A stretch of DNA of 63,908 bases, filler included, from Craspedostauros australis (Eukaryota), in the NCBI GenBank assembly GCA_030167865.1. It is 12 parts of 12 records of this genome, joined end to end, with 100 filler letters (N's around TTAATTAATTAA, not from the genome) between each part and the next. Parts side by side here need not be neighbours in the genome. Positions count along the whole stretch, not along the records: positions 53,595 to 59,301 come from JALAGF010005550.1; 11 more parts are not named here. One strand, written 5' to 3'. Positions 1 to 63,908 of the stretch are shown piece after piece. The notes below the pieces were generated by a model. The model saw only the letters and a list, made by a program, of their open reading frames with translations. It searched no databases and was not told where the DNA came from. Position 1 is the stretch's first letter. Every line of letters begins with the position of its first letter. The position numbers were made by a program, and so were the translations under genes.

Positions 1-1076
1 CGATTTGCTCGATGCAGAAGATTACGCCAAAATCAAGAGATTAATCATTAAGCGTCCCAGCCACCGCAACCCACAACTGTAACAGCGCTTGCAACAAAAC
101 GAGCAAGAGATTGAACAATTGCAACAACAGTTGGAACAGGAGGTGAAGCGGAAGCAAGAGATTGAACATTTGCAACAACAGTTGGGACAGAGATTGAAGC
201 TGAAGAAGCAAGAGAAAGAACACAAACACGGTAGCCACAAGAGGACCAACATCAGCATTGGAGAAGACCGACTCAAGTCCTTCTAACTGGGAACAGGACA
301 GATTCCGTCTTCTTGTGTGGACAGGACGACGAACAGTAACCAATCAAGGCAAACTCCGAAGTCCTAATGATCACCCTCCCATCCATTGAGATACTGATCG
401 ATATAGGAATCCAACATCACCACACGAATGATGGCACAGAAGACTACGCGGCCCCCATGCAAGCAACCGTCTCTCTTCCCAACCTCCAACCAAAACACCG
501 ATACGTCCTCCAATGCATCTGCGCAGGCGAGACATCGATTAACAACAACACTCATGACGATACTGATCCTGATAGCATGGACCAGCCACCCCACTCCTTC
601 AATGGACAGGACGATCTGCAACAGCTGATCCTTGTGGCCAACGAGTTCGGCTTCTGGCGACTCAAGCTTGTTCTTGAAGCAGAGTTGGCCTGCATGCATC
701 TCACAGAGGACACCATGATAGATGAGTTGATATTCGCCCATGAACACAACTGCGTGGTGTTGAAGGATGCGGCAATGAGAATGGCAGCTGAAAGTGAGAA
801 AGATATGTTCACTCATCCAGATTTCAGCAAACTGATTCTACAGCCCCAACTGATGGGAGCCATTCATGTCCTTTGCAGTGAGGGAATGGTGGCCGATGGA
901 GTTGATGATGGGTACGGTCGTATGTCCATGATGTAGTTGCACAAGGTTGTAGATGAAGACGAGGGTGCTGTGCAGGTGGATTCGTACATGGATCGCGTTG
1001 CGCTGTTGCGCTTCGTGCGTTCCATCACATCTTCCAGGGTGGCTGAGAGCGACGGCGCTGCCGAGGAAGAGAAATA
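1..1076 (+). pseudogene. Coiled-coil + BTB/POZ-domain pseudogene (paralog of the ANK-CC-BTB gene at 58093); 5' end outside window
   Basis: Heptad-like Q/E/K stretch (89-286), then TDSVFLCGQDDEQ*PIKANSEVLMITLPSIEILIDIGIQH...SLPNLQPKH, which aligns by eye with ADVTFLCRQGDEQQPIKANSAVLMITVPSIQTLINSGIQH...PLPNFQPKH at 59080-59290. Downstream LILVANEFGFWRLKLVLEAEL...LIFAHEHNCVVLKDAAM is BTB/BACK-like. Disrupted by a frameshift near 285, TAA at 337-339 and TAG at 934-936. Confidence 0.75.
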
Positions 1077-15803: not shown

Positions 15804-15870
15804 TGTTGAATTGTGTTGAATTGTGTTGAGTTGTGCTGAGTTGTGTTGAATTGCGCTGGGTTGTGTTGAA
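15804..15870 (+). repeat. (TTGTGTTGAA)n 10-bp tandem repeat upstream of the AMT start codon
   Basis: About 6-7 imperfect copies read directly. Confidence 0.85.
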
Positions 15871-16883
15871 CCGCGTCAAACTTCCGCGATCGCGCAGGTG
15901 AGCCTTTTCTTTCTGGATTTTCGCCGATGTTTTGGCGGAAGTGTGCTGTACCAGGTGCTCGTGAGCGTGTACGCAGGTGCGGCCACCAACGAACATCACC
16001 TGAGATCATTGGTCTTCTTGGACTGGTGCGTTTTCTGACCAGCAACCCGGGCGTCGCGCTCGTGTGACCAGAGCGCACAAAAAGCAAAGGAATGAATGGT
16101 GGGCGACTTTCTGCTTCCCGCATTTTCTTTTCCACGTGTGCCTGTTGCGCCATCCTCGCTTGGAATGTCCCCAAAGCGTGTGTGCGATCGAAATTTCTTT
16201 TGTCTTGACACGCGCATGGCCGAAATTGATCCACCACCAACCGGGCGGGCTCCCACCGAGACATCGTAGCAACCAATGAGGTTATTTGATTATCTGTCGT
16301 GACATGCATACATGTCCCAAACGTCGACCATAATGACTGTCCCAACAGCGTCTCTGCACCTGATCAGTATTGCCACTTCTTTGTTCGTGACGCAACATGG
16401 TGCGTGGTCCATCCCACAGCTATTTCTCCGCAATGATAAATTTGGCGGTCAAAGTCGCGATGTGGGCGTTTTTGTCAACCGCGCCTCTGTTCGTGTCCGT
16501 GTCCAAAAAGACGTTCACCGACGATTGGCTCCCATTGCTCGAATACTCCGAATGATACGACCGGAACGACAAACACGAACAGAAGCGGACACAAGTGCAG
16601 ACTGATGACTGGATTATTAGGTATGGCATCGAACAAGGCTGAATGCAAACGACGCCAACCGTTCACATCTGTATAAAATGTAAGTACTCCACACGTCTTA
16701 GTACGAGTATGCATGAAGGCGCAGTCATGGCCAATCCTAATCATATGTAAAACTTGTCTATGCGAATGTTACATGATTCTGTGCGCACCTTCTCCTGCCT
16801 ATTATGCCATATAATAGAATAATGTAATATTCTAGAATATATTATATCCACGAGGAAATTCTGTCGCGATAGAGGACCCCTGA

Positions 16884-21249: not shown

Positions 21250-21674
21250 TCATCCTAACTCCCCTTCACTATGCTTGCACACAAGGCCACCATGGCGTCG
21301 CGAAGAGCTTGCTTTGATCCGCTCGTATCCACGGCAACGCACATGCCATCATCAACGCCCAAGACTCGTCCAACAAAACGGCACTTCATCATGCTTGTGC
21401 CCATGGTGACGTGGGCGGAGCGAGGTGCTTGCTTGAATTCATCCAAGCCAACGAAGTCTGCATCGACCTCAACGTTCAAGACAAGGAGGATGGGAAAACA
21501 CTGCTTCACTACGCCTGTATCAATGGTGATGCAGATATCGCCGGCGATCTTCTTGACTTCAGTCGAGTCAACAGCTATGCGGCAATCAATTTCAATATCC
21601 GAAACAACTACCATGGCTGCACGCCACTGCATCGTGCCTGTGAGTACGGCGAAGCGGATGTGGTGGAATGTTGA
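21250..21674 (+). pseudogene. Ankyrin-repeat pseudogene fragment, divergent from the 18309 gene
   Basis: ILTPLHYACTQGHHGVAKSLL*...NKTALHHACAHGD...GKTLLHYACINGD...GCTPLHRACEYGE. In-frame TGA at 21315-21317 and a stop mid-repeat at 21672-21674. Confidence 0.75.
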
Positions 21675-29799: not shown

Positions 29800-29899
29800 N
29801 NNNNNNNNNNNNNNNNNNNNNNNNNNNNNNNNNNNNNNNNNNNTTAATTAATTAANNNNNNNNNNNNNNNNNNNNNNNNNNNNNNNNNNNNNNNNNNNN

Positions 29900-32800
29900 G
29901 TGCTCGGCATCGAGTGCGGCTGGTACGTGATGAGCACCATGATGTGGATGACAACAGCCATTGTGCTATTCGCCCTCCACACCGGTGTTCCACGGCATTA
30001 CCAACCCACCTCGACCCGAACAAGCCATGCAACCAACGTCTGGAAGAAGAAACAACGAAAGCGTTTTAAAACTCACCAACACTTCTACCATCATCCAGCC
30101 ATGCCAGCAAACAGTCTGTACGACTCTGTGTTTGGCAACGACGACTTCAAGCACTTCCTCCACGACAAACGCACCACCATCGCAAAATTCGACGCTCCAC
30201 GTGCGAACCACCGAAACAAAACCCGACGGGTTCGCCGATGCAGAGGTACAAGCCAAAACTCCTGTCGCGCGAAGCATACGCCCAGTCCCGCTNGTCCACC
30301 CAACAAACGCAACGAAGCACGACCAAGTGAACACGCAAGCGCCAACGTACTTGCCAACGCCTATTACACCCTCACGGCCATCTTCGGTTGTAAACACGCC
30401 TTTGCCGCGCCTCACAAGGTAGAAGAGGTCATCCCAAGCGGTGGCTCCTTCGATGTAGTGTGGGACACCGGTGCCTCCATCTGTGTCACCAATGACATGA
30501 ACGATTTTGTGGGCCCCACCTCTGCACCAACAAAACCAACCTTCCTTAACGGGTTCTTGCGTCGCACCAAAGTCAAGACGAAGGGCACAGTGGAGTGGTC
30601 GATCCTCGACACCAACGGCAAGCCACGATCCTTGCGTCTCCCGGCCTTCTACGTACCGGGATCATCCGTCAAACTCATCAGCACCACAAGCCTCCTCCAT
30701 CAGTACAAAGGAGAGAACATCATCGTGGAAGCCACCAACATCAAGCTGAGCGGTATCCCAGGAAACGAAGAACGAGGATCCATCATCGCCCACAACCGGA
30801 AAGCAAATCGTCTTCCCACATCACGTGCCTATCGCACAGGCGACCTCTCCGACGTGCCAGCCGCGCTCACAACAACCATCACTTCTGTGGCACAACACAA
30901 CCAAAATCTAAGCCAACCACAGAAGGAACTCCTCAAGTGGCACTACCGACTCGGGCACCTCTCCTTCCGACGCGTGCAATTCCTACTTCGATCCGGTGCA
31001 CTCGTCAACACCGAGGCATCACGAAAAATGCAAACAGCAGCCGCCCGTGTGCAGGAGTGCCCGCTATGNGCGGCATGCCAATTCGGCAAACAACACCGCA
31101 GACCNANGCCAGGCACAACACAGCACGCAATACTGGACCGACAGGGTGTGATCAAAACTGATCATCTCTTCCCTGGCCAACAGGTCTCCGTGGATCACTT
31201 CGTGGGACGCACGCTGGGCCGCCTATTCACTGGAAGGGGCAAATCTGACGCCTCGGAAATGTACAAGGGCGGAGCGATGTTTGTGGATCATGCATCAGGG
31301 TACATTCACGTGGAACCTGTCGCGTCCCTCACAACCCACGCAACACTTGAAGCGAAGACGCGATTCGAGTCCATGTGTCGCGATGTGGGAGTACCAGTGC
31401 GCTCCTATCTATCGGACAATGCCACCACCTTCACATCTCCAGACTACACCAAACACCTCGAGCGCTTCCACCAAGTGCATCGCTTCGCCGGAGTTGGTGC
31501 CCATCATCACAACGGAGTGGCCGAGCGGAGCATCCGTACCATCATCTCCATGGCACGCACAATGATGATGCATCAGAGTATTCACTGGCCGACGATGTTT
31601 GACGCACAGCATTGGCCCATGGCAGTCGTGCATGCGGCGTATATTCACAATCGGGTCCCCAACGCAGCCACCGGATTGACACCAATGGACATTCTCTCGC
31701 GTACGCGCATCCCGCTGAAGCAACTCCACAACCTTCATGTGTGGGGCAGCCCAGTGTACGTGTTGAACAAAGCTCTTGGCGATGGCCGCAAGATCCCACG
31801 ATGGGAACCACGCGGAGAACGGTACGTCAACATGGGCCTTTCCACCCGTCACGCATCAACGGTTCCCCTCGTGTTGTCACCACGGACAGGATCAATCACC
31901 CCGCAATTTCACGTCGTTTTTGACGATTGGTTCGCAACCATCGCAACAAACCCAAGCGACCTTCCCGACTACAACACCAGTGAGTGGACCCACATGTTCG
32001 GCGATACAACCTACCAAATCCCTTTTGACGACGAAGACATCATCGCCATGGAAGAAAGAGACATCGAACGTGAAGACGCAAACGACCACCAACGGTTCCA
32101 CTCCACAAACGATGCCCCGATGCCACCGCCATCATCAGGCGCGCCACCGGTATTCACGCGAACTCCGATCAACACAGATTCACCAGCTCACATTTTGGAA
32201 CAGCCGTCTGAACCGGAAATGAACAGCGACACAACACCGGTCGATCAAGTGCAACCACCTCAACCAACCTACCAACCAGCGGAGACTGTTGAAGATCACA
32301 CACGCACACCACCAGTGCCACCAACAGAGGGAGGCGAGGAGCCGAAAGAACGTGCCGTTACAACTTCGCCAAACCTGTTGCCACCAACAGAGGGAGCGAC
32401 AAACGATGACGAAAGTGGTGTAATGCCGATCGCAAGTGATTCCCCTCCAGCTTCGCCACCTCGTGAACCCATTCACGCGCCAACGAAAAGAGACAAGGCA
32501 AAATCATCCAAGCCACCTCCACTTCGCCGCTCGGAGCGTATCAACAAACGAGAGCCACGAGAACGCAAAACCGTCGAGCGACTCACCTACAACAAGTTAG
32601 GGGGCAAAGTCGTGTGGGCAGATGACGACACGCTACCCATCGAAGCTAGCGCTAACGTGACAACTCAACACACAGGTGACCACAGCAAGACCCAAGCGGT
32701 ACAGAGCATGAAGAAGGCCCTGCAGGAGTGCCGCCAGTCGCTAATGGAGTTCACGGAGCACCCTGACGACCAGGTAACACAAAAAGCCAAGGTCCTGGTC

Positions 32801-35800
32801 CGTGACGCGGAATCCATGCTCCGAAATTTGAAAACCATCGATACCGAAGAGCTACGAAAGGACGAACGGCGTTGGGCGCAGGGCGACCTCGAAATGGAAC
32901 GGATGCTACGTGCAAGACAGCTCGAGATCCGAGCCGAGATGCGCAGGGAACAAGAGGAGGCAGCGGCCGATGAAGCTACATCCCGGCATGAACACCACAT
33001 CCTCATGATGAGCATCCAGTCCGACTCGTCCTCAGAGGACGACGATTCATCCACCGGCAACACCATGGACCCCATCGACATCGGCCACCTGTGGCCACAT
33101 CACGTCAACATCACCCGGCACATCCGCCACTACTTTGACCATGTGGTGCAGTTCCGGTTCCCGACGGAAGCTGCAAGGAGCCAGTGCATCTACTACGCCA
33201 TCCGTAGATTTGTTGACGCTGTCGATGAAATGCTCGAAACAGGTGAGTATCACCTCCCCGTCTCGTACTTCGGATTCATACCAAGAATACAAGGTCAACG
33301 GTATACCCTGGAGCGAGCCATCGCGGCCATGGAAAACGGTCTATGACCACCGGACGAAGATGAACGGGTACAGGACTTCATGCGACGAGCGGGCTTCGCG
33401 TGGCATCTCATCACGCATGACGAGCGATTTGAGATTGGAATACTTCACTTGCACATCCAGCTTGGAGTCGCACCCGAGGTACCACCAACGATCATGGCAC
33501 CACCGAGCGAATTCGAACAGGCCGAACAGCACGCTTCGGCACCAACTCACCACGCCCACCATCCACCGCAGCATGATGATGAAACCGACGAACACTACGC
33601 AATGGCGGCAGCGGTCGAGCACAACGACAACGACAACGACAACCACAGTGCCCTCATCACATACGACCTGCTCAGCTTCTTCACCAGCGGCGGCGATCTC
33701 GACATCACGAACCGGCACTTCAGCTACAAGGCATCGAAAGCTGACCCCGACACTCTATCTTTCAGCGAGGCCATGAATGACGACAACAAGAATGAATGGA
33801 TGGCCGCCGCACACAAGGAAATCCACGATCTCACCAACAAAGGGACGTGGATTGAAGTGCCGAAATCCTCCACCACCGATCGCATCTTCCCGGGGACGTG
33901 GGTATTCCGACGCAAGCGAATGCCCGACGGGACGGTCAAGAAGTATATAGGCCGATGGTGCTGCAGAGGCGATATGATGACCGAAACGGAGGCAACCTAC
34001 GCTCCGGTTGTCGCATGGTCATCCGTCCGTGTCTTTCTCATCCTTTCCATTTTGCTCCGCTGGGTCACGACATCGATCGATTTTTCGAACGCGTTCGTCC
34101 AAGCCGACATCCACCGACCTGTCTACTTACACCTCCCTCGCGGTTTCCGATCAACAAATGGACCTGACACGTGCCTCAAGCTGATTAAAAGCCTTTATGG
34201 TCTCACTATAGCTCCCAAGCTATGGTATCAGCATCTCGTGCGCGCCCTCCTTGCGGAAGGGTTTCACGCGTGTGACCAAGAGAAGTGCCTGTTCATGCGC
34301 GACGGCATGATGATCGTTCTCTACGTGGACGACGCTGGTATCGCTTCGCGTACGGAAGAAGAGGCAGACGCATTCATCGAGTCCATGCGCAAACGCGGGT
34401 TTGATCTCACACGAGAGGGCACGTTCACGGAGTTCCTGGGAATATCACTGCACCGAGACCCCAAAAACAACACCATCCACCTCAAGCAGACCGGNTTAAT
34501 CAACAAGATCATNGAGGCCNCCGGNATGCAGNANTGCAAACCAAANGTNACACCAACAACACAACTCGCCCTCGGCGCCTCAACNGACCAACCGCCAATG
34601 AAGGAAGCATGGAACTACNGCTCCATCGTCGGCATGCTGCTCTACTTGACTACGAACACACGCCCCGACNTGGCCTTCGCCGTCTCTCAAGTGGCCCGAT
34701 TCAGCAACGACCCCCGCCAACCGCACGCAAAGGCCATCAAGATGATCGTGCGATACCTCCGCCACACAAACACCATGGGCACTATCGTACGGCCAACGGG
34801 CCAACTCAACTTGGAGTGTTACGTCGATGCCGATTTNNNNNNNNNNNNNNNNNNNNNNNNNNNNNNNNNNNNNNNNNNNNNNNNNNGGTCTCACTATAGC
34901 TCCCAAGCTATGGTATCAGCATCTCGTGCGCGCCCTCCTTGCGGAAGGGTTTCACGCGTGTGACCAAGAGAAGTGCCTGTTCATGCGCGACGGCATGATG
35001 ATCGTTCTCTACGTGGACGACGCTGGNATCGCTTCGCGTACGGAAGAAGAGGCAGACGCATTCATCGAGTCCATGCGCAAACGCGGNTTTGATCTCACAC
35101 GAGAGGGCACGTTCACGGAGTTCCTGGGAATATCACTGCACCGAGACCCCAAAAACAACACCATCCACCTCAAGCAGACCGGATTAATCAACAAGATCAT
35201 TGAGGCCGCCGGCATGCAGAATTGCAAACCAAACGTAACACCAACAACACAACTCGCCCTCGGCGCCTCAACTGACCAACCGCCAATGAAGGAAGCATGG
35301 AACTACTGCTCCATCGTCGGCATGCTGCTCTACTTGACTACGAACACACGCCCCGACCTGGCCTTCGCCGTCTCTCAAGTGGCCCGATTCAGCAACGACC
35401 CCCGCCAACCGCACGCAAAGGCCATCAAGATGATCGTGCGATACCTCCGCCACACAAACACCATGGGCACTATCGTACGGCCAACGGGCCAACTCAACTT
35501 GGAGTGTTACGTCGATGCCGATTTCGCTGGTCTGTACAAGCGTGAGTCCGACGATTCTCCCAACGCAGTACGCTCACGTACCGGCTACGTCATCATCCTC
35601 GGTGGCTGCCCGCTCGTGTGGAAATCGNNNNNNNNNNNNNNNNNNNNNNNNNNNNNNNNNNNNNNNNNNNNNNNNNNACAACTCATCAACGAAGTCAACG
35701 CATCAACGAGTCTCAATCAACCGCTGCAAACCAACATCCAATGCACCGTTTTTGAAGACAACGAGGCGTGCATCTCACTGGCGACAAACCACAAGGTCAC

Positions 35801-35972
35801 GGCGCGAACCAAACACTTTCTCACCAAATGGCATTTCTTCTGGCACTGGGTCAAGGAAGGCTTCATTCGAATCCTACACGTACCAACACCACATCAGGTC
35901 GCTGACATCTTCACCAAGGGCCTTGCGCGGGATGCTTTCGAACACCTGCGACGGATGCTCATGGGATGGTGA
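29900..35972 (+). CDS. Copia pol polyprotein; single frame 29900-34836 interrupted only by TGA at 33344-33346, continued in the overlapping contig 34887-35972
   Basis: ORFs 29900-33346 and 33380-34963 are in the same frame and separated by GGT CTA TGA CCA CCG. Confidence 0.85.
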
Positions 35973-37130: not shown

Positions 37131-38762
37131 ATGAAGATGACGAATTGTTCCTCCAGCTACGCCGGACCTTCCGCACTCTCCCTTGGAGCTCTCTTGGTCC
37201 TGCTTTCGAGGGCACAAGGTTTCACCAGCATCGCCAGACCTGTGTCGCGGGTGATCCCGTCAACACCATCAGCACCATCAGCAACATGGCGACTGGGGCA
37301 TGCTGTAGATGGTGTCGCACGAACAGGGTTGTTGCAGATGCAGTCGGGTGATGAGGTCAAGCAGACACCAGATACTGAGCAGAAAGCGAACGACAGCCCC
37401 GGACTTGCCGCGCTCAATGGGAAGAGAGTGCTGCCCATGCGCATCGTGCTAGCTGGGCTTGGAGATCAGCAAGTGGCCGGCGTTTACGCTATCTACAACA
37501 AAGACTACAAACGAGGGTGCGTGTGTGAGAATGCCTTCAAATCGTGAATGCCTCGAATTTTATGTTAGACGGTGGTGAAGGGGAGTAGAGTCCACGTAGA
37601 GTGGAGCCCTTTGCCTCCCTTTCAACTCGTACAATGGTCGTTGTCAGCATTTCCGACCTGCCCATGCTTGGAATCTCCCTCACCCCACTGTTTCATCCGC
37701 GGTTGCCCGCTGTTCGACTTCAACGTCGCATTGCGCCTCGTCCGATCCTTCCGACGTCTCCTCAATGACACATATCTGAGTAGCCAGGATGGCTGGGAGT
37801 CCTGCGAATTCGTTGGCACCTCGTTCGACTTGGTGAGCTCGATCAACGCGCACATCAAGGTCAGCGGCGCGGACGTCATGGCGCACGCGAGGATCCTGTC
37901 ATTCTCATCCGCGAACAGCGACGCCATGCAGACCGTTTCCGATGAATGGAAAGTGAAGGTGAAGGATGCTGTTGGGCCATTCGCTGTGCGTAGCGCTATG
38001 GAAGCAGCCCTGCTTTTTGATGAGGACGACGATGATGACGACGACTTCGACGAAGATGACTTTGACGATTTTCCACCAAGATCTTCGACCAACATCGTTC
38101 GCAACGATGACGAAGAAGAGGAGTCTGAGGTCGCCGATGTCAAAGGAGGTGCAGGCAGTGGCTTGGAAAGCAAGGGCACCGATACGAGTGCGAGTGCGTC
38201 GGTTTCGACAACTGAGGACGGCCAGACAGTGTCACCCTTCGCTGAAGACACCAAACAAGCGCAAAACACAGGGCAGGACATGGAATTGAACAAGGAGAAT
38301 GTTGATTCTACGCTTGATGAAGTCCGGCCGTACCTGATCGCCGATGGCGGCAACGTCTCCGTCGATCGAGTGGATCCCACGACAGGGAACGTATACCTCA
38401 TCTTGGAGGGTGCCTGCGGCTCCTGTCCGTCGTCCACCGTGACTATGCAGATGGGAATAGAACGTGTCCTGCGCGAAAATTTCTCGAATCTTGGCGAGGT
38501 GCTGCAGGTGGAGACTGAAGACGAAGCAGGCTCGGATGGTTCGATCGACAGTCTTGTGAACAAGGAGATCGACAGATTGAAGCCGGCGGTGATGGCGATG
38601 GGTGGCAAAGTCGAGCTTCGCAGCGTGGATGCGGAGGGCACCGCCGAAGTCTTCTTCAGAGGCCCGGCGAGGGTCCAGCAAGGTCTCGAACTTGCCCTCC
38701 TTGACGTTGATGCTGTGGAGCGGATTGCATTCATCTCTGATGACGGCGAGGGCTCTGTGTGA
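37131..38762 (+). CDS. NFU: Plastid NFU-type Fe-S carrier with N-terminal GIY-YIG-like domain; 2 exons (37131-37516, 37784-38762)
   Basis: Signal ending AQG|FTS plus a transit-like region. Intron GTGCGT...TAG joins KRG|QDGW in frame. NifU_C domain LDEVRPYLIADGGNV...LEGACGSCPSSTVTMQMGIERVL (CxxC), followed by a second Cys-less NifU repeat, as in plastid NFU1-3. Confidence 0.88.
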
Positions 38763-44852: not shown

Positions 44853-44952
44853 NNNNNNNNNNNNNNNNNNNNNNNNNNNNNNNNNNNNNNNNNNNNTTAA
44901 TTAATTAANNNNNNNNNNNNNNNNNNNNNNNNNNNNNNNNNNNNNNNNNNNN

Positions 44953-47900
44953 GATCATCATGTGACCAGCAAACTCTTGGAACTCAGGACCAGCTACAAA
45001 ACAGATCTTTTCTTTTGTGTATGCTTCTAGATAGGCGTTACCAATGTCACCCACCATGGGCTTGAGGTTGTTGAGTTCTGCGGCCAGCAGCGCAATCCTG
45101 AATGATCTGAGATTGACTACTCCAGCATATGCCATATCTTTGCATGGATCCGTTAAGTGCCCTCCTGCTACGCATCTTGCCTTGTGTCGAAGGTCGTGTT
45201 TCACGTCGTACACCCAGAGGAGCTTGATCTGCTTGTATCCATCTGGTTTCCGAGCGTTCTTTCCGAGATCCTTGAACGTGCCATACTCGTGGAGCTGATC
45301 CATTTCTTTTCTCTCAGCGTCTACCCACTTGGAGTTGCCGTTCTTCTCGTCAAGTTGGCGTGCTTCTTTTCCGTTGCGTGGAACTTGAACACCAAACTTG
45401 AAGATAGGACCTTGTGCACGTGTTTTGCGTTTGCCAGCATTGATAAGACGATTGAGTTTCTTCTTTCTCTTTGCTAATTTACGGAATCTTTTCCTGCCAG
45501 GCAGACCAAGGAGGTTGTTGTCTGCGGCATACTTCGCGCATGAGACAGGATCGTCCTTGGCTATCACGTCCAGCGGTTCCATTGTCACACTGCCATCCTC
45601 CCATTGTACCTTTACGTTGTAGGAGGAGCCGTTGTACTTGCTGTGACTGGAGTGGAATGGAGTGGAATGGACCTTCATGACCGGTGATGGCTTTGAAAAC
45701 GCACATCTCCCCGTCGCCAATCTCCTGTTCGTGTTGTTGCTCGATGATGTCGGCCAGATCCGTGTACGCGATGAGCTCTTCGGTGTCGTCGTCGCCGTAT
45801 GCGATGAGCATCTTGATGTTGTCATGGTTGGCTGCGTCTCCGTCCTTGATCTTGCGGATCACTCGAGCTCTCCACTTGAGACCATCCTGTTGATGAAGGA
45901 AGGTCAATCCGAGCAACTCGTCAGGACTGAATTTGGGGACTTTGACTACACCAGGATCTGATTCTCCATGTGATGTGGCTACCAGGTCAGATAGTGCATG
46001 CACAACGGGTTGTCTAGGTTTAGGCGTGCTGTCACTATCGAGGTCTTCTGGATTTCCGCTTTCGCTAGCTTCGTCATCCACGTCACCATCCTCCCCAGAA
46101 GCAGGCAGGGGGTAGTCTGCCCGAAGGTTTCGCGCGTCATCAGACACACGTCGGATGCTGGAGCGTGGCAACAGCCGTTGCGTTGCGTCATCTAGTACCC
46201 AGAACGTCAGTTCNTCACCCTTGTGNTCGCATGGTCCAGCCCAGCGNCCACGCCGTTCNTGCGTGGTNCCTGGGAAGGCAGCGTNCCCGACCTTGTAGTA
46301 CACTGGCTCCCACCAGTGGAAGCTGAGGTACTTGCTGACATCAGGGCGCTGGCCTGTGGCGGCTTGGATGGGCGTGATGTGGCCAGCCGTGGACTGTGAC
46401 AGATGGTTGAGCAGTCCCACGACATACAGGGTGCAGATGAGCCAGAACCTGGCAGGAGTGCCAGTTCTGTCCATGATGCCGTTGGTGGTGCGCTTCACAT
46501 CCTGGATGCGTCGCTCGACAGGATTCTGATGTTGGTGGTGTGGCTCGGACTGGTGGTCCGCGATGCAGTACTGCCGGAGGATNNNNNNNNNNNNNNNNNN
46601 NNNNNNNNNNNNNNNNNNNNNNNNNNNNNNNNATGTGGCTACCAGGTCAGATAGTGCATGCACAACGGGTTGTCTAGCTTTAGGTGTGCTGTCACTGTCG
46701 AAATCATCTGGATTTACGGTTTCGCTAGCTTCGTCACCCACGTCACCCTCCTCCCCAGAATCAGGCAGGGGGTAGTCAGCCCGTAGGTTTCGCGCGTCAT
46801 CAGACACACGTCGGATGCTCGAGCGTGGCAACAGCCGTTGCGTTGCATCATCAAGTACCCAGAACGTCAGTTCGTCACCCTTGTGCTCGCACGGTCCAGC
46901 CCAGCGTCCACGCCGTTCTTGCGTGGTGCCNGGNAAGGCAGCNTTCCCNACCTTGTAGTACACTGGCTCCCACCAGTGGAAGNTGAGGTACTTGCTGACA
47001 TCAGGGCGCTGGCCNGTGGCGGCTTGGATGGGCGTGATGTGNCCNGCCGTGGACTGNGACAGATGGTTGANCAGTCCCACGACATACAGGGTGCAGATGA
47101 GCCAGAACCTGGCAGGAGTGCCAGTTCTGTCCATGATGCCGTTGGTGGTGCGCTTGACATCCTGGATGCGTCGCTCGACAGGATTCTGATGTTGGTGGTG
47201 CGGTTCGGACTGGTGGTCTGCGATGCAGTACTGCCGGAGGATGTCCTTCATCTTGCCTCCGATCTGCGCTGTGGCGTTGTCGGACATCAACACGTCCATG
47301 GCACCATGCTCCCGAATGAAGTCNNNNNNNNNNNNNNNNNNNNNNNNNNNNNNNNNNNNNNNNNNNNNNNNNNNNNNNNNNNNNNNNNNNNNNNNNNNNN
47401 NNNNNNNNNNNNNNNNNNNNNNNNNNNNNNNNNNNNNNTCATGATGAGCAGGCGTGTCAGAGAACAACGTGTCCATGGAAACAACATCGTGTAGTCGGTC
47501 GACATTGGCTGCGGGGAATCTAGACTTACAGTGTTTACGCATGGGATAACGCTCAGACATGCGGTACCACTGGGTAGTACATGCAAGAGTGTCACGCACG
47601 CGGTCTGCTGGAANNNNNNNNNNNNNNNNNNNNNNNNNNNNNNNNNNNNNNNNNNNNNNNNNNACGCTCAGACATGCGGTACCACTGGGTAGTACATGCA
47701 AGAGTGTCACGCACGCGGTCTGCTGGAATCCACCCGAAGTATGGCCGCAGCGCATGGAAATTGGGCGCTTTACCCACGATGTTGCGTGGCCCGGCCGGTG
47801 TTGCCGTCTCCCCATCCCCGAGCGTTGCAGCGGATTGAACGTACTGAACGCACTTGGAGATGGCGATGTCGATGTCGTTGTCTTCTCCGCGTTCGGTTGC

Positions 47901-53494: not shown

Positions 53495-54136
53495 NNNNNN
53501 NNNNNNNNNNNNNNNNNNNNNNNNNNNNNNNNNNNNNNTTAATTAATTAANNNNNNNNNNNNNNNNNNNNNNNNNNNNNNNNNNNNNNNNNNNNAAAACA
53601 CAACGATGTCTGCAGGAAATCTCCTGCAAACAACACTGCCAAGAAACATGTCCTGCATGATTGTTGCCTCTTCATTGTTTTCATCATCATCTTCATTGTC
53701 TTCATCAACTTAATCATAAATTGCAAAAGTTCACAACTCAAAACACTCTTCAAACACAGTACAAATCAATTGCATTCACTCTCGTCTTCCCATCGTAAAC
53801 TCTGACACCAAACGACTTCATCAGTCGGTCCGAGTTGCGACATTGAACGCTTGCTCAAGGCAACGCAACAAACAATTTTCTCACAGCAACAAAANNNNNN
53901 NNNNNNNNNNNNNNNNNNNNNNNNNNNNNCAACAACAACAACAACAAACGATCCAATCCGGATTTGTTCCATCTACGGGGACATCTCGGACACGCGAAAA
54001 ACGACGCGAACTAACGCAATTTAACTATCCGCAAAGGCGCCATCATCATCGCCATCATCATCGCCGTCGCCACCGTCATCATCATCACAGTCCAAATCCA
54101 AACTCAATCTTCAATAGTTCGAACGCAACCACGAAC

Positions 54137-55938
54137 ATGGAGGTGTCTCGGCCACAACCTCAAGCCCCATCCAGTCCTGGAGCCTTGAGTTTGGGAATCG
54201 AATTGCAATCGAGCAAGAAGGACCAGGTGGCTCCTTCTCACAACAGATCTGCATGCAGTTCGTTGCGCCCAAGTGAAGACTCAAAGCAACGACGTTCACA
54301 CGAATGAAGCACGGATGCTCTGCGCGATGGGATGAAGGAAAGGATCTCCAAGGTGCTTGGCAATGGGCCCCGACGTCACCACTCCAGCAAAACAAGAGAC
54401 ATGTCATCACCATCACCATTGATATTACCATCGAGATCACCATCGCCACGGCATTGGCGGAGAAGCACACAGCACACCAGTGGCAAGCCGCGCTCGACAT
54501 CGTCAAGATCAAGCAGTGTGGAGCATTCGACATCATTGCGCCATCGTCGTGACGGAGCAATTCACACTTGCTCCTCTGGAAGAAGCCGCTGCTCACCATC
54601 GGCGCGGAGTCGTCGAAGTCTGTCCGATCGCGATCACACAAGACTGCGCAAGTATCGATGGACTCATCGCCATCATCACGGCGACAACGAGCATCTGGCA
54701 GTTCGGATGATATGAACGCAGCCTCGAGTTCACGCCAATCCAACTCAAATGCGCACTCCACCGGTACTGGTTTGCACCAACGCAAGGGCTCACCTTCCCG
54801 AACGCATGCCCGGGGAAGTTCGCAAAGGCCAAATCAACGTGGCCATAGCCAATCGACACCATGTGGCGAAGATCAGCGAAGGAAGTCCTCCGATGAACGA
54901 TCACCATCGGCGCGACAACGAAACAGATCAAGAAGATATCGAAATTGTAGTGTCGAACAGCATAGCAATGAGAGAGATGAGAATGGACGGCATTGCAAAC
55001 AACAACATGGCAACAAACGTTCGTCATCACACAAGGCCCTTCAATCAAATCGTTGTGGACGAAGCAGATCGTCAACTCGCGATGCTGTCTACCATGAGAA
55101 GTGTTAGGAATTGAGGGTACGACTTTTTCGGAATACCCGTAATTGCCGCACCTCCCAACATTGTTCGTCACAACTTTGAATATTATTCGTCACATGTTCT
55201 GAGACTATTTGTCACACCTTTGTATACCATGTCATTATGACTATGACTAAGCATACGGACGCGATTGATACCTGTATAACCGCGAAGAGGGTAGCCTGTC
55301 CTCTGGTGACGTAAGGAAGACACCCACGGCGGATCAGGAGGTCCCGATACCACGCCAACCATGGCAACCATCCAGACGACGACGTCGACCAGAACAGCAT
55401 GTCCATGGGCAAGTGACGCACCTTCTTCAGAGGACAGCACGCGCCCCTCCTGCGGACAAGAACATCCGCAGGTTTGGAACATCAGAAAGGATCAGAACAA
55501 CCGCAGGTTTGGAACATCACCAAAGATGGCATCGACCATGAGGAGATGGTGTCATGAGACCAACAACGGAAACATGAGATAGGCAGGAGCTCAAGACTGC
55601 AGATCCCTACCATGCAAGCGTAGACAGCTACGACGAAGCAGAGACAAGGAAGCAAGAACAGAGCATGATGAATGAAGAGGAAAGCACCTAAGAGACAACA
55701 GGACGCCCCGTGTCGCCACCACGACAGATGCCTGCCATGAAGACGAAATCGGAAGAGAAAGTGAGATTGTGCTCACAGTTCTAAAACGGTACAGTTTCTA
55801 ACAGCAGATTAGAATTTAGTACTAACTATAACCCCGGATTTCCAACAGAGAAGCTGTCCGGCACAAAACCACTGCAACTCACACCAAAGAAAGTGGTCAG
55901 GAGCAAGTGCGCGTCTCAGTACCGTGATCGCTCGATGA
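54137..55938 (+). pseudogene. Ser/Arg-rich low-complexity pseudogene interrupted by a solo LTR
   Basis: ORFs 53843-54307, 54332-54715 and 54749-55114 are in one frame, separated by single TGA codons. Removing the LTR and one TSD lets the frame continue STMR-SCPAQNHC...IAR*. Confidence 0.55.
55102..55847. mobile_element. Solo LTR (746 bp) with 6-bp target-site duplication GAGAAG
   Basis: Begins TGTTAGGAA and ends TTCCAACA (TG...CA, imperfect terminal inverted repeat). Flanked by GAGAAG at 55096-55101 and 55848-55853. Confidence 0.85.
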
Positions 55939-58092
55939 ATGGCACCCAACTAACACCAGTGATGCATCACGACACGATGGGATGGAATGAGATGTGCGGG
56001 CCGCTCCGTATTTGTATCATACTCATAGAGGTATGGTAGATCCACATCCCTGTATGTAATACACCTACGAATAGACTGTACTTCTCTACGTATGTTTNNN
56101 NNNNNNNNNNNNNNNNNNNNNNNNNNNNNNNNNNNNNNNNNNNNNNNCGAATAGACTGTACTTCTCTACGTATGTTTGGAACAGTACCGCATGCACTATA
56201 TCTGCTCGTGCAATAGAACACTGTGATGAAGGCACCGGAGGTTTCAAGACATTGAAGGGCTGGATACTGCTCCCATGCTGTCTCCGCCCTGTCTACGACT
56301 GGTCTGGTGCGCTCTCTACGGTACATACGCACACAGGGATGTTGCCAATGTCATTCATGAGCAGATTGGACATCTGTGGTTCCATCCACACTCCGCCATC
56401 AGCATCGTTGTTGGTTCGTTGCTCAGACAAAGGACGCATGGCAGCAGCATTATCACAAGCTGTGCGGTCGTCACCATGCCACCGGATTCGCACACAGAGC
56501 AATCTACTCCAAGTTACACTACCAAGCAGATGCAAAGCAACAGTGCCGATGCCAGTCGATCCAAGTTGCTGGCAGAGACGATCTACGAAGAACACATGGC
56601 GAACATGGCAGAGGGAAATGATGGGAAGCCGCGAGGAGCATGGTTGCTGCACGGTTCTATCGACCGTCCCCTATTACGCTATTGTCCTCATCTCTCCATG
56701 AGTTGCACTCCTGCCATTGCGCCAACACTGCAGTCGAGGCCCTTATCAAGTCTCAGGAGGAGCGATCACTCACCATTGGAGTAACAATTGCCAGGGTCAC
56801 CACCCATTCCAATCTTCGAAGCGACCAGTGCCAGCGTGGCGGAAATACAAGAACCGACGAGCTAGCGCAGTCCAAACATCCAGAGAGCTTGACGAGCAAA
56901 AGAAGAAACCAACGAACCAACCAACCAACGAGCAACCCCATGCAGAGTGCGAGTGCTGTATTGCGGATCATGGTTGACACAGAGTTTTCGTATGGTAACA
57001 GAAGCACGCGGTCAGCGATCCATGGCCCATGAGCACCGTACACCCACATGTCCTCCTTTGTGGTGATCCCAACTTCGTTGATGAGGTGGATGTTCCTGTC
57101 GATCGCCTCGGTTGAGCATCGATGCTCTGGAAGTCACGAGCCAAGACGGCGGCACTCATGCCTATTGATAGAATGCGCATGGTGTTGTGTGTTGGTGGTC
57201 CGTGTGGCAGGAACAGTGGAGGCAGCACAGTATCACTCCGCCTGATGCTTGCTGAACATGCCAACTCATCCCCAATACGCAATGTGGTGTTGATTTGGTG
57301 TGGAGGACTCTTGTTGCCCGCGCGGATGGTGATGGTTGCAATGCGGTGGGATGGTAACCAGTCAAATCCAAATGAGATGGGTGGCAACCAACACAGGCAA
57401 TCAACAAAGGCAGTCACATCGGTGGCTTTATTGGTGGCTTCGTTGTTGTTCGAGGCATTGGCTCACACCTCAAGTTGGTGCTTGCGATGGCAGGCGGACG
57501 AGGGTCAGCGGTCTTGCAGATGCCACGATGACGCAAGCAAGNNNNNNNNNNNNNNNNNNNNNNNNNNNNNNNNNNNNNNNNNNNNNNNNNNNNNNNNNNN
57601 NNNNNNNNNNNNNNNNNNNNNNNNNNNNNNNNNNNNNNNNNNNNNNNNNNNNNNNNNNNNNNNNNNNNNNNNGAGAACTCTGTTGTGGTGCTTCTTTCTT
57701 GTTGTTGGTCGCACGCATTTTCGTGATGGATGGGAACAGAAAGATCCAATCCGCGCGAACCAGACGGGTGCGATCAAGAGAAGGAGACAAACACAGGCAA
57801 ACAGAAGGAGGAGACCATGCGAACAAGACAACAGCACACACACCACCCAACCCCATACTCAACCGCGTGAACAACAGACATCGAATTGCCACCCATATTC
57901 ATCACACAGCGTATGGTACTCATACTCATACTCATACTAATACAAGCTGTTGCATACACAAACATCGATATCTCTTCCATAGGCAGCTCCGACCACAGAC
58001 ATCCTCGACAGCCAATCCAACGTATATCGTCCAACTTCCAACGTCCAACGTCTATCGTCCAGCAACCATCGACCATCCACCACACTCTCAAA

Positions 58093-59301
58093 ATGCCGAG
58101 TGTTACNAACNAACAACTCATTGATGCTGCCAAGGCAGGTGACTTGTCAGTGTTGAAGGAGTGGAAGAAGCAGAACAAGACGCAGAATGAAGGAGTTGAT
58201 GTCAACTGCGAAGACAGTAATGGTTGGACTCCCCTTCATTGGGCATGCTCCAACGGCCACCTGGAGTGTGTCAAGTACCTCATCGAATCATGTGAGGTGG
58301 ACATCAACTGCAAAACCGACCAAGGTTCCACTCTCCTTCATCTGGCATGCTCCAACGGCCAGCTGGAGTGTGTCAAGTACCTCATCGAATCATGTGAGGC
58401 AGACATCAACTGCAAAAACAACCATGGTTCCACTCCCCTTCATCGGGCATGCCTGTGTGGCCACCTGGAGTGTGTCAAGTACCTCATCGAATCATGTGAG
58501 GCGGACATCAGCTGCAAAGACAACCATGGTTCCACTCCCCTTCATCTGGCATGCTGCTGGGGCCAGCTGGAGTGTGTCAAGTACCTCATCGAATCATGTG
58601 AGGCGGACATCAACTGCAAAAACAACAAAGGCAGCACTCCCCTTCATCTGGCATGCCGCAACCACCGCCCGGAGTGTATCGAGTACCTGGTTACATCAGC
58701 CAATGCCGATACCGACATTCAAAACAACGACAACAAAACCCCCCTCAATTTGATGGGTGCGAAACTTCCAATCAAGATGATACAACGTCTCGATGGTCTG
58801 AGTCACCGCAGCTCACAACTGCAGGAGCAGTTGGAGGAGAACGAGCAAGAGAATGAACAACTGAAACGGCAGTTGGAACAGAAGGAGGAAGAGAAGACGC
58901 AGAAGGAGCAGGAGAACAAACAATTGAAACAGCAATTGGAACGGGAGGAGGAATCAACGCAGCGCTTGCTCTCGAAAAGTCAACAGGAGAACGAACAACT
59001 GAAACGGAAGTTGAAACAACATCTCAAGATCAGCATCGACCAAGATCGTTGCGCCGCTGTTCATGCTGAGGCCATCGCAGACGTTACCTTCCTGTGCAGA
59101 CAAGGGGACGAACAACAACCAATCAAGGCAAACTCCGCAGTCCTCATGATCACTGTCCCATCCATTCAGACACTGATCAACTCTGGAATCCAACATCAAT
59201 GCGCTCACGATGGTGCCCACGATGGCGCTCAAGATACAACTGAACCCATCCAAACAACCATCCCTCTTCCCAACTTTCAACCAAAACACGTCCGATACGT
59301 C
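58093..59301 (+). CDS. Ankyrin repeat (N-cap + 5) - coiled coil - BTB/POZ protein, 3' end off-scaffold
   Basis: Five 34-aa ANK repeats (G.TPLH.AC..GHLECVKYLIESCE), a Q/E/K heptad region, then ADVTFLC...IKANSAVL (BTB strand motif 'DV.F......AH..VL'). Confidence 0.88.
58200..58700 (+). repeat. 102-bp coding tandem repeat (ankyrin units)
   Basis: Identical 37-nt block ctggagtgtgtcaagtacctcatcgaatcatgtgagg at 58261, 58363, 58465 and 58567. Confidence 0.95.
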
Positions 59302-59401: not shown

Positions 59402-62109
59402 TTGCCATCCTCATAGATCTCTCCGTTCCCGACCGTTATTGGGACATGGCCGAGTAGGCCACTGGATGAGGGTGCTTGGATGTCGTATAAGACAGGTAAG
59501 GCCATTGGGCTGTCCGAGTGCAACTGGTCGATTGCTAGATTGCGGTTTGTCTGGTAGATGCTATTGGGGGTTGCGGCAATCATGGGTATCTTTGCACTTA
59601 ATACCATTTCGGTTCCAGTCAGTCCTCATGGGATCTGCGGTAGAATAAGGTATCTTTGCAAAGTCATACCCCCGATTCCTGACATATGTACAGACCATCG
59701 ACCAAATCACTGGTCTGCTCTCGCGACATCAAGTGGCTCAACCAATCATACGGACAGTTCCGTGGCTGGGCACCAGCACCGAACCTATCCAGCGAAGCAG
59801 GAACAACAGATGCAGAAGGCTTCACAACCATCGGACGGAAGGGAGCGACACCAAAGACAGCAGTGCATCGAACATCAGAAGTAAAGAGAGCATCTTTCGC
59901 TGACAGCAACAGCTACTACATCCTATCGGATAGCGACGATGAGGATGATGGGAACGATGGAGCAGTAACCCAACTAATCCATAACGACAAGGAAGATCGG
60001 AGCGAATCCAATCATGAGGATGACGAGATCATACCATCCGGCGACGAAGCCGACGATGACACAGGCGTCACTCCTCCAAACACACCAGCGAGGTCTACAC
60101 ATGACACACCATCCAGACCTCCACCAAGCAAACCAAGCAAGCATGACATAGCTAGAAAGGAGAGAATCCGACATCACAAAGCACGAGGCAGGAAGGGAGA
60201 CACCAATCCCAAGTCAACTACAGGGAAGAGCATTCCCAGAGCTCTGCGTGAGCTCGCAGACTTCAACGAACGAGGTCGAAAGGAAGAAGGCTACGAGAGT
60301 AAGTCATCATCGAACGAAGACAGTGATGAACTGAGCGATGATATAACTGACGAATCCAACAACGAAACTACAGATGACGAAGAAATCATGGATGAAGAAG
60401 AGATCGAGATCACTCACCATAGTACAACAGGACTGTACGAGATGAATGCAATCATCACCGAGAGACCAGCGATCGACATCGGATTGTCGATGCAGGACGA
60501 GAACAAGGAACCAGAGAAGCACATCGAACCTACAACATTCGATGGAGCCTTCAATCACCCAGATCCCATCCCTCGAAAGGGATATCGAGCAGCCATCAAG
60601 AAGGAGTTCGACTCCATGGATACACGCAAGGTGTACAGTAAGATCAAACGAGACGCCATCCCACGCCGCCGCAGATGCTGCAAGTGCAAATGGGTCTTCA
60701 AGCTGAAGCGTGACGGCACACATCGAGCGCGGCTCGTTGCATGTGGCTATTCACAAGTCGCAGGAGTAGACTTCCAAGAGCATTATTCACCCGTCATCCA
60801 TGACGTGACCTATCAGGTCATGATGGTGATCATGCTGATCAAGAAGATGGACTGCGCACTCGTCGATGTCGTAACGGCATTCCTACATGGAGACCTCGAC
60901 NNNNNNNNNNNNNNNNNNNNNNNNNNNNNNNNNNNNNNNNNNNNNNNNGAAGCCCTGACCCTACACAAGCCAATCTACGGACTTGTGCAGAGCGCCAGGC
61001 AATGGTTCAAGATGTTGGTGTCGACCCTCAAGAACATCAACTTCGAACAGAGTGCAGCAGACCCGTGCCTGTTCTACAGGAAGACGAACGAAGGAAGCAT
61101 GATCGTGGCCATCTATGTGGGCGATTGCTTCTGCTGCAGAGACTCCAAGGCACTGGAGACCTTCCTGAAGGACATCCAAGGCAGCAAGTTCAAGGTAACA
61201 ATCGAGCGCGGACTTGGAGACTACCTCAGCTGCAACATCGAACTGAACCATGACAAGACTAGAGCGACATTGCGTCAACCACATCTCATCCNNNNNNNNN
61301 NNNNNNNNNNNNNNNNNNNNNNNNNNNNNNNNNNNNNNNNNNNNNNNNNNNNNNNNNNNNNNNNNNNNNNNNNNNNNNNNNNNNNNNNNNNNNNNNTGCA
61401 GAAGGTCGGACCGGAAGAACATGCCGAATACCGCCAAGGCGTCGGTATGCTACTCTTCCTCATCAAGCACTCGCGACCAGATATCGCAAACCCTGTGCGG
61501 GAACTCTCCAAGGTATTGATCGGGCCCACCAAGGCCGCAATGAAGGAGATGTATTGGATCATCAAGTATGTGATCGATACAANNNNNNNNNNNNNNNNNN
61601 NNNNNNNNNNNNNNNNNNNNNNNNNNNNNNNNATGTATTGGATCATCAAGTATGTGATCGATACAAAGGACTATGGATTGAAGATCCATCCAGCGCGTCC
61701 AGATGACGACGGCTGGAACATGGAACTCTTCTGCGATAGCGAATATGCAGGAGACAAGAACACAAGAATCAGCGTAGAGGGATTCATCCTATACCTATGC
61801 AAGGTACCAATCCTTTGGCGATCCAAGGCACAGAAGGCCGTCACACTCAGCTCATCCGAAGCAGAATACGTTGCCCTTTCCNAAGCGGCAAAGGANATCT
61901 TCTTCGTTGTGCAGCTACTCGAAAGTGTGGGCATCCCAGTGAAGACACCGATCAAGGTCCGCGTGGACAACATCGGAGCGATCTTCATTGCCAAGAACCC
62001 ATCAACATCCCAATGATTGCGGCATATCGACGTGCGCCATCACTACGTGAGGAACATGGTAATCAACAAGACCATCGAAATCATTTTCGTCAAATCCGAG
62101 CAGAACACA
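59402..62109 (+). mobile_element. Decayed Ty1/copia pol (integrase C-terminus, RT, RNase H)
   Basis: MYRPSTKSLVCSRDIKWL; EPTTFDGAFNHPD; KWVFKLKRDGTHRARLVACGYSQVAGVDF; DVVTAFLHG; YGLVQSARQWF; IYVGD (YVDD mutated); FCDSEYAGD, LSSSEAEYVA, VDNIGA, TSQ*LRHIDVRHHYVR. Confidence 0.93.
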
Positions 62110-62209
62110 NNNNNNNNNNNNNNNNNNNNNNNNNNNNNNNNNNNNNNNNNNNNTTAATTAATTAANNNNNNNNNNNNNNNNNNNNNNNNNNNNNNNNNNN
62201 NNNNNNNNN

Positions 62210-63908
62210 AGCTCGAACGCAACGAAGACGACGAAGACGGAGTATGGGGATTCCAAGGCATCATCGGCCACGAAGGACCTCTCACTCCGAACGTCAAGAC
62301 CTACAAGGGGTCCCGATACAATGTCATTGTACAATGGGATGACGGATCAACAACATCCGAACCACTCTCCACCATGTTNNNNNNNNNNNNNNNNNNNNNN
62401 NNNNNNNNNNNNNNNNNNNNNNNNNNNNNNGATCAGCCTGGATGGAAACGGCTGAAGAAGCTCTCTGACCGACAGGCTCGAATGGAGCGCAAGACCTCCA
62501 TCAACAAGGCCAAGAAACACACCAACGCACCCATCTACCAGTTTGGTGTTCAGGTACCACGCAATCACCAAGAAGCCGTACGCCTCGACAAACGCAACGG
62601 CAACACGCTCTGGGCAGATGCAGAACGTACCGAGATGGAACAGCTCTTCGGATATGAGACATTCCGATCACTCGGCAAGACCAAGACCATTCCAGATGGA
62701 TACCAACAGATCCGGCTGCAATGGGTCTACGCGGTCAAGCACGACCTCCGACACCGAGCACGATGTGTGGCTGGTGGCCACCTGACGGATCCATGCAAGG
62801 ACTCCTCCTACGCCGGAGTTGTCAGCTTGCAGTCACTCCGAATCGCCCTCCTCGCTGGCGAACTGAACGGACTCAAGACCATGGTCGGCGATATCGGCAA
62901 CGCCTACCTGGAGGCATACACGAAGGAGAAGATCTGCTTCGTAGCCGGCGACGAGTTCGGGGAGCACGCAGGCCACATGCTCACGATNNNNNNNNNNNNN
63001 NNNNNNNNNNNNNNNNNNNNNNNNNNNNNNNNNNNNNNNNNNNNNNNNNNNNNNNNNNNNNNNNNNNNNNNNNNNNNNNNNNNNNNNNNNNNNNNNTGGA
63101 TGCGTGATGCAGGTCCGCACTGGGAATACGTATGTGTATACGTAGACGATCTCATGGCGGTCATGTCTGACCCACGCTCCTTCTTCGACACTCTCACTTC
63201 GCAGTATGGCTACAAGCTCAAGGGTGTCGGTCCCATCTCTTACCATCTAGGAGCAGACTTTGGAAGAGACAGCGACGGCACANNNNNNNNNNNNNNNNNN
63301 NNNNNNNNNNNNNNNNNNNNNNNNNNNNNNNNCTTCGGATATGAGACATTCCGATCGCTCGGCAAGACCAAGACCATTCCAGACGGATACCAACAGATCC
63401 GACTGCAATGGGTCTACGCGGTCAAGCACGACCTCCGACACCGAGCACGATGTGTGGCAGGTGGTCACCTGACGGATCCATGCAAGGACTCCTCCTACGC
63501 CGGGGTTGTCAGCTTGCAGTCACTCCGAATCGCCCTACTCGCTGGCGAACTGAACGGACTCAAGACCATGGTCGGCGACATTGGAAACNNNNNNNNNNNN
63601 NNNNNNNNNNNNNNNAAGATCTGCTTCGTAGCCGGCGACGAGTTCGGGGAGCACGCAGGCCACATGCTCACGATTGTCAAGGCGCTCTACGGCCTCCGGA
63701 CATCCGGAGCTCGCTTCCACGAAGCACTGGCAGATACCCTCCGAGACATGGGCTTCCAGCAGTGCAGATCTGACCCCGATGTGTGGATGCGTGATGCAGG
63801 TCCGCACTGGGAATACGTATGTGTATACGTAGACGATCTCATGGCGGTCATGTCTGACCCACGCTCCTTCTTCGACACTCTCACTTCGCAGTATGGCTAC
63901 AAGCTCAA
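62210..63908 (+). mobile_element. Ty1/copia RT region, same lineage as 44953-49020, in overlapping contigs
   Basis: GIIGHEGPL...YNVIVQWDDGSTTSEPL; YQFGVQVPRN; WVYAVKHDLRHRARCVAGGH; GDIGNAYLEA; KALYGLRTSG; WEYVCVYVDDL. Confidence 0.92.

Follow-up and report, generated by a model that had tools for sequence, protein, structure and literature searches.

Proteins of the MATH-BTB type such as SPOP and the plant BPM proteins are textbook Cullin-3 adaptors, with the substrate module placed in front and the BTB domain behind. In fungal NOD-like receptors (NLRs), tandem repeat arrays are described as evolving in concert, as polymorphic in repeat length and as positively selected on the concave face (PMC4986451, PMC2873952), and in designed ankyrin repeat proteins (DARPins) defined surface positions of a 33-residue internal repeat are randomised (PMC8683736). 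Here a gene of the diatom Craspedostauros australis (assembly GCA_030167865.1), found at the end of scaffold JALAGF010005550.1, is compared with these systems. It was analysed within a stretch of 63,908 bases, referred to below as the window. On the best explanation, it is a nuclear diatom gene that encodes a modular substrate receptor and of which the 5' three quarters are present. The product is probably a lineage-specific Cullin-3 substrate receptor of the SPOP type; an ankyrin array would have taken the place of MATH and then grown, under diversifying selection, through duplications within the gene.

The window strings together 12 small scaffolds, joined by N runs placed around a short AT-rich spacer and containing 56 N runs in total. 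Adjacency of features across these linkers is therefore meaningless, and the scaffolds next to that of the gene (53595-59301) are uninformative on its genomic context. From an ATG at 58093 a frame of 403 codons runs free of stops to 59301, the scaffold end (an N run); it requires no intron, and two codons near its start contain N. In a Pfam scan the encoded protein (P0001) matched ankyrin families with E values of 1e-54 to 3e-55, over five stretches and above the Pfam cut-offs (Ank 179.8 bits, Ank_2 182.5 bits, Ank_4 183.3 bits). An earlier note on this DNA had read the gene as an ankyrin array fused to a coiled coil and a BTB domain; an order of ankyrin array, helical linker and BTB is supported by Pfam, the alignment of relatives and the fold of the tail.

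The array contains five 34-residue units in register, starting at 58210, 58312, 58414, 58516 and 58618, and was reported by Tandem Repeats Finder at 58228-58688 with a period of 102, 4.5 copies, 87% matches, 0% indels and a score of 670. The identical 37-nucleotide framework block noticed earlier is present in four copies with 0 mismatches (at 58261, 58363, 58465 and 58567), and the window holds no extra copy at up to three mismatches, with 0 expected from 100 shuffles. Units 1-4 share 84-92% nucleotide identity with one another. Unit 5 shares 65-68% with them and differs at many silent sites, and is thus much older. The hairpin and helix 1 motifs that the earlier note gave for each unit were recovered, except that in unit 5 the residues RN are followed by H and not G. 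Among units 1-4, 23 of the 102 nucleotide columns vary, distributed over the three codon positions as 7, 9 and 7. Twelve of 34 codons are variable and all 12 change the residue, in agreement with the earlier claim that most differences alter the amino acid, while codons with only synonymous change number 0. The 22 residue-constant codons hold 14.3 synonymous sites, of which 0 differ. Changes are also uneven along the unit, with at least 22 in the first 51 nucleotides against three in the last 51 (P = 8e-5).

These differences are concentrated on the presumed binding face. The seven positions randomised in DARPins, which we take to correspond to unit positions 1, 3, 4, 6, 14, 15 and 27, account for six of the 12 variable codons, so that six of the seven vary (hypergeometric P = 0.004). 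The earlier note had placed the differences at concave-face positions and had named beforehand a lack of enrichment at contact positions as one outcome that would speak against it; the 21 nucleotides of these seven positions carry at least 16 changes, against nine in the other 81 (binomial P = 3e-6). Between unit pairs, the proportion of replacement differences (pN) at contact codons is 0.19-0.49 against a proportion of silent differences (pS) in the framework of 0-0.087, and Fisher tests give P<0.05 in four of six pairs, the pairs being non-independent. With zero silent change at framework sites, simple neutral drift after duplication is excluded. Relaxed constraint or decay was likewise rejected as an explanation, the frame being open, the silent sites unchanged and the contact codons much changed. 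The silent-site pattern points to diversifying selection acting on the binding face, whether or not gene conversion also homogenised the framework. It fits alike a very recent duplication followed by strong positive selection and a framework homogenised by conversion together with selected diversity.

An array of near-identical units in a draft assembly raises the question of whether it is partly an assembly product, in which units of several paralogs or alleles sharing the 37-nucleotide block were threaded together with wrong number and order. The source material invites such a reading, given the many small scaffolds and N runs and the N bases within the gene itself. On another scaffold of the window, identical sequence (1232-1492 and 1543-1803) flanks an N run and looks like a gap-closing duplication artefact. 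Public reads bear on both sides. Run X1, which is small and possibly of RNA, contained 52% of sampled words; 692 of its contigs fit 1190 nucleotides at 90% likeness or more, 116 of them at 99% or more, while 167 of the 692 fit two places and up to 33 share one alternative base. This fits the presence of many related copies or alleles, and the contig counts are not copy numbers. The contigs break within the repeats, and some contain joints that skip 102 nucleotides and a net 408 nucleotides, treated as weak since their sides are only 21-22 letters long. Against this stand an open frame across all units and X1 contigs with zero differences that cover the unique linker at 58725-58978. Furthermore, the contrast between contact and framework codons would stand as a property of the family even with units drawn from several genes. 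An array threaded together by the assembly is on balance unlikely. Run X2 gave a single contig on two of 30 bins.

The C-terminal part of the gene is assigned through its relatives. Word-based protein searches returned one relative for the window tail and two for the open reading frame of a broken paralog on another scaffold. P0003 carries seven ankyrin repeats and a BTB domain scoring 28.9 bits (PF00651, cut-off 20.5), while P0002 carries one ankyrin repeat, a Q-rich linker and a BTB domain. The last 90 residues of the window gene align to both, with 19 invariant columns, and its half of the domain comprises helix 1, two strands, two helices, the variable loop, the third strand and the start of the next helix. 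An AlphaFold model of whole P0003 had a predicted local distance difference test score (pLDDT) of 87.1 and gave only ankyrin and DARPin matches in a fold search, for which reason the tail was modelled separately (pLDDT 92.5; predicted template modelling score 0.88). The 10 best PDB matches of this tail model were all human SPOP (E values of 2.3e-8 to 5.1e-7), with a template modelling score of 0.82 against the SPOP BTB entry 4j8z_B. NPR1 (rank 11, E 8e-7), KEAP1 and Cullin-3 complexes of vaccinia A55, KBTBD2 and KLHL3 followed, and the model aligns with full-length SPOP over 196-208 columns. Searches of PDB by sequence gave 0 matches for the paralog reading frame, and a four-row tail profile gave matches only at E values of 0.24-0.96, KBTBD2 included. 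Because the aligned relatives match Pfam BTB and their fold is SPOP-like, the window gene is assigned the N-terminal half of a BTB domain like that of SPOP. The second half and a BACK-like bundle would lie past the scaffold end. The C-terminal BTB domain of Cullin-3-adaptor type that the earlier note predicted is accordingly upheld in the relatives, whose BTB scores exceed the cut-off and whose closest fold is SPOP.

Between array and tail, residues ~240-312 form a linker composed of 17% Q, 16% E, 14% L and 13% K. Its heptad a and d positions are 56-62% hydrophobic against 0-3% elsewhere (56% against 2.5% in the best register, of 56 residues), with leucines almost only at a and d, and its DNA consists of imperfect 63-nucleotide repeats, equivalent to three heptads. 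The coiled coil named in the earlier note would fit the heptad pattern and the 63-nucleotide repeats, but as a structure it is only plausible. The linker is a variable part of the family, since P0003 has a disordered one instead (pLDDT <50 at residues 317-343 of its AlphaFold model).

A search with the tail profile over 1.84 billion cluster representatives gave 303 at E≤1e-3, 21 at ≤1e-10 and 11 at ≤1e-30. A Pfam scan of 24 tail relatives found BTB above the cut-off in 21, ankyrin together with BTB in seven (eight with P0003) and MATH in nine, MATH being confined to neighbouring clades with no match on P0001 or on the ankyrin-BTB relatives. The ankyrin-BTB proteins make up at least eight clusters with <50% identity to one another; where the sources name them, the members are from Craspedostauros australis or from one transcriptome series. 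Two of the MATH/BTB neighbours are also from Craspedostauros australis, and two further neighbours are from Stauroneis constricta. A quick maximum likelihood tree of the tail, built from the top 24 of 44 alignment rows and rooted on distant MATH-BTB rows, placed all nine ankyrin rows in one clade (Shimodaira-Hasegawa-like approximate likelihood ratio test 99), along with a fragment and a row lacking Pfam ankyrin; the clade is nested among MATH-bearing rows. The simplest reading of this nesting is that an ancestral SPOP-like adaptor swapped MATH for ankyrin repeats and then multiplied. Within the clade, P0007 lacks Pfam ankyrin and has a loop and strand segment duplicated inside its BTB domain.

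Repeat number across the family ranges from 1 to about 10. Three near-identical proteins of one 90% cluster (P0006, P0155 and P0156) differ only in which internal ankyrin units are present, absent or chimeric; they carry four, four and six units, and one includes a chimera. This could reflect unequal exchange and real variation in repeat number or an artefact of transcript assembly. A paralog with the same tail had been reported as pseudogenised; its reading frame shifts near 284-300 and is interrupted by stops near 80, at 337-339 and at 934-936, and one codon is missing, so that at least one family member is dead. The earlier note held that a count of only one or two members would speak against a family. 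At least eight ankyrin-BTB clusters and at least one pseudogene were found, and a family with several members is therefore supported. No locus of a relative came up in two scans of metagenome contigs, one using the tail alignment and the other P0003. Two further ankyrin sequences were seen on other scaffolds of the window. At 18309-20177 (minus strand) an intact ankyrin-only protein of 622 residues, without BTB, has an N-cap 40% identical to that of the window gene over 219 residues and near-duplicate internal repeat pairs of its own. At 21255-21668 (plus strand), near a scaffold end, an ankyrin-like stretch without a clear ATG-started reading frame shows 31-35% identity to P0001.

The preferred reading, a SPOP-type receptor with ankyrin repeats in place of MATH, may be set out as follows. 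The tail belongs to a lineage-specific clade of SPOP-like BTB proteins that has ankyrin repeats where MATH, the usual substrate-binding domain, would stand. In the window gene an N-cap, four young units, an older unit and a C-cap make up the ankyrin solenoid, which a helical linker joins to a BTB domain; in full-length relatives this domain appears to continue into a SPOP/BPM-like BACK helical bundle. The array of the window gene grew through in-register tandem duplication of the 102-bp unit, after which nearly all fixed changes were replacements at concave-face positions of the hairpin and helix 1. Judging by these domain families, the BTB domain would be expected to dimerise and dock on Cullin-3, and the concave face of the ankyrin repeats to bind a target that is then ubiquitinated.

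Several points weigh against this reading. The list of contact positions used in the enrichment tests is our assumption, and the selection test covers a single gene and four of its units. Between units 1-4, pN/pS over the whole unit is only 0.87-2.45, not clearly above 1, and the selection signal therefore rests on the contrast between replacement change at contact codons and silent change in the framework. The array sits in a draft scaffold containing N bases, and the order and number of its units are without read support because the identical 37-nucleotide blocks exceed the word length of the contigs. In the protein collection, a search with the ankyrin region gave 1733 matches at E≤1e-20, dominated by generic ankyrin proteins, with a best identity of 48% among the 120 matches listed; a near-identical array is absent from the collection, and none of the matches listed shares the framework. 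With regard to the tail, the Pfam scan of P0001, in which the domain is cut off after its first half, gave no BTB match even at E≤1, and to this extent the earlier BTB claim does not extend to the window fragment itself. The paralog reading frame likewise has no Pfam BTB match, and P0002 scores 20.0 bits, slightly below the cut-off. BACK_BPM_SPOP (PF24570) stays below its cut-off of 27.4 bits in all clade members scanned (P0004 22.2, P0011 20.9, P0014 19.7, P0002 19.1, paralog 14.9). Docking of the tail on Cullin-3 is predicted by analogy, and the loop that presumably carries the motif for Cullin-3 contact varies in sequence and is incomplete in the window gene. As a whole, the case is built on a single truncated gene from a poor assembly, together with a small number of transcripts.

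The low BACK scores also agree with a different role for the tail, namely that BTB serves here as an oligomerisation or scaffolding module which does not recruit Cullin-3, while the ankyrin face assembles or regulates partners, partly as in some animal ankyrin-BTB proteins and in NPR1. NPR1 does appear among the fold matches, directly after the SPOP entries; against this, it is itself reported to work with Cullin-3 as well. The ankyrin-BTB protein Btbd11 has been described as a synaptic scaffold, a further point in favour of such a role. Both by fold and by sequence, however, the tail comes closest to MATH-BTB proteins of the SPOP/BPM type, which are Cullin-3 adaptors, and a purely scaffolding tail is considered quite unlikely.

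Two further explanations concern what the receptor would be used for. The earlier note had proposed an intracellular, immune-like repertoire, in which duplication, shuffling and surface diversification generate binders that route viral or parasite proteins to Cullin-3 ubiquitination. Its pattern is that of the internally conserved repeats (ankyrin, TPR and WD) in fungal NLRs, with positive selection on the concave face and polymorphism in repeat number (PMC4986451, PMC2873952). Pathogen defence has also been proposed for expanded nematode and plant MATH-BTB and F-box adaptors (PMC1866355), although that source itself calls the evidence indirect. The family is apparently lineage-specific, varies in repeat number and includes a pseudogene, and the many X1 contigs at ≥90% likeness, with up to 33 sharing one alternative base, speak in its favour. 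Such contig counts are not copy numbers, however, and the ankyrin-BTB clusters seen number only about 8-9 and are diverged. As to targets, infection response, strain polymorphism and exchange between genes, the proposal draws on analogy, and an immune-like role is regarded as unlikely. In its fuller form, raphid diatoms of this lineage might keep germline-encoded intracellular binders, built as SPOP-type Cullin-3 adaptors whose array is remade by 102-bp duplication, deletion and chimera formation together with selection on contacts, and directed against viruses or intracellular parasites. This would be a ubiquitin-ligase counterpart of fungal NLR diversification, and is a speculative proposal of low probability.

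A reproductive role competes with the immune one because BTB/POZ families of the benthic diatom Seminavis robusta are biased to sexual stages and also figure among genes flagged for amino-acid diversification (PMC7335047). Fast-evolving adaptors of this kind could act in sexual reproduction or mating-type-specific processes, diversified by sexual selection or conflict rather than by pathogens. Ankyrin, on the other hand, has 0 occurrences in the text of that source, and the reproductive explanation is considered improbable.

The coordinates of the gene and of its paralog are collected in Table 1. Some 30-80 nucleotides 5' of the start codon, a 7-nucleotide unit, TCCAACG, is repeated 6.6 times (58016-58061) and may lie in the 5' untranslated region or promoter. 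The unplaced scaffolds of the window are repeat-rich. Copia-type retroelement reading frames occur at 29852-35972, 44905-45858, 59683-62016 and 62158-63906 (RVT_2; gag-pre-integrase at 29852-33346); they lie on other scaffolds, and a viral or transposon-borne origin of the gene was rejected. Ordinary cellular genes, also on other scaffolds (10665-12455, 13258-16363 and 37569-38762), encode an Hsp70 fragment, an ammonium transporter and a NifU-domain protein, the ammonium transporter being split over two reading frames by an intron or frame break.

Table 1. Features of the ankyrin-BTB gene and its paralog, in window coordinates.
Feature	Position	Strand	Basis or location
Open reading frame, 403 codons, 3' end cut by the scaffold end	58093..59301	+	Frame scan
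N-terminal capping ankyrin repeat, residues 1-39, common to relatives P0002 and P0003	58093..58209	+	Pfam, alignment
Four tandem 102-bp (34-residue) ankyrin units, each with the identical 37-nucleotide block	58210..58617	+	Repeat analysis
Fifth, older ankyrin unit and partial C-terminal capping repeat	58618..58788	+	Unit comparison
Q/E/K/L-rich helical linker with imperfect 63-nucleotide repeats	58810..59028	+	Heptad and repeat analysis
BTB domain, first half; remainder predicted past the scaffold end	59038..59301	+	Alignment to P0003
Pseudogenised paralog: end of ankyrin array, Q/E-rich linker, BTB and BACK-like tail; 5' end cut by the window start	1..1076	+	Other scaffold

In literature on diatom ankyrin and BTB proteins and on Craspedostauros ankyrin proteins, no description of an ankyrin-BTB family was found by title or abstract. 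The earlier statement that such a system is not described therefore holds for diatoms at that level, but not for its parts, as the evolutionary pattern is described for the ankyrin repeats of fungal NLRs (PMC4986451) and the defence idea for MATH-BTB and F-box proteins is in print (PMC1866355). Intracellular recognition of viruses, oomycetes and chytrids by diatoms is little known, and the ankyrin-BTB family offers a concrete, testable candidate repertoire. With it, the rule known from fungal NLRs and from the MATH-BTB proteins of nematodes and plants would reach a third supergroup of eukaryotes and a new combination of domains. Should the targets prove to be host proteins, the gene would still be a clean natural case of the re-aiming of an ankyrin binder, with relevance to protein design.

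Among known systems, the closest in the tail are SPOP and the plant BPM proteins, which have the same BTB domain followed by an apparently similar helical extension, with SPOP as best fold match; outside the ankyrin-BTB clade, no proteins are nearer in sequence than those of the MATH-BTB type. The MATH-BTB expansions of nematodes and grasses are likewise lineage-specific, with changes focused in the substrate-binding part. The window gene is not a member of the SPOP/BPM MATH-BTB family, because MATH is absent; it has ankyrin in that place and, in its subgroup, a Q/E/K-rich helical linker, and its Cullin-3 docking is a prediction. Closest in repeat behaviour are the fungal NLRs, which likewise have nucleotide-similar tandem repeats, a hypervariable binding face, variable repeat number and broken members (PMC4986451, PMC2873952). 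Unlike these, the window gene has its repeats at the N-terminus and BTB as output module, with no Pfam match to NACHT or NB-ARC. Highly internally conserved repeats of fungal NLRs have >85% identity over ≥100 residues (PMC4986451), whereas units 1-4 lie below this figure with 71-82% residue identity (hand count) over 136 residues. The window array is still the most uniform among those examined, with a maximum unit identity of 0.82 against 0.76 in the next, P0156.

DARPins share the fixed framework with variable hairpin and first helix, and the ankyrin model of P0003 matches DARPin structures. The window protein differs in being natural, in its unit of 34 rather than 33 residues, in extra variable positions (2, 8, 11, 17, 30 and 33) and in its fused effector domain. 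An ankyrin target-binder combined with a cullin-docking or BTB module is also found in ASB proteins (ankyrin-SOCS box, Cullin-5), poxvirus ankyrin/F-box proteins (Cullin-1), the animal proteins ABTB1/2 and BTBD11, and plant NPR1 (PMC3185573 for part of this list; for the remainder, general background). In NPR1 the BTB domain stands in front, the ABTB proteins have two BTB domains and the other docking domains differ, and none of these proteins shares the SPOP-like tail clade. The novelty lies in a probable SPOP-type adaptor with an ankyrin recognition array and fungal-NLR-like repeat dynamics, in a diatom.

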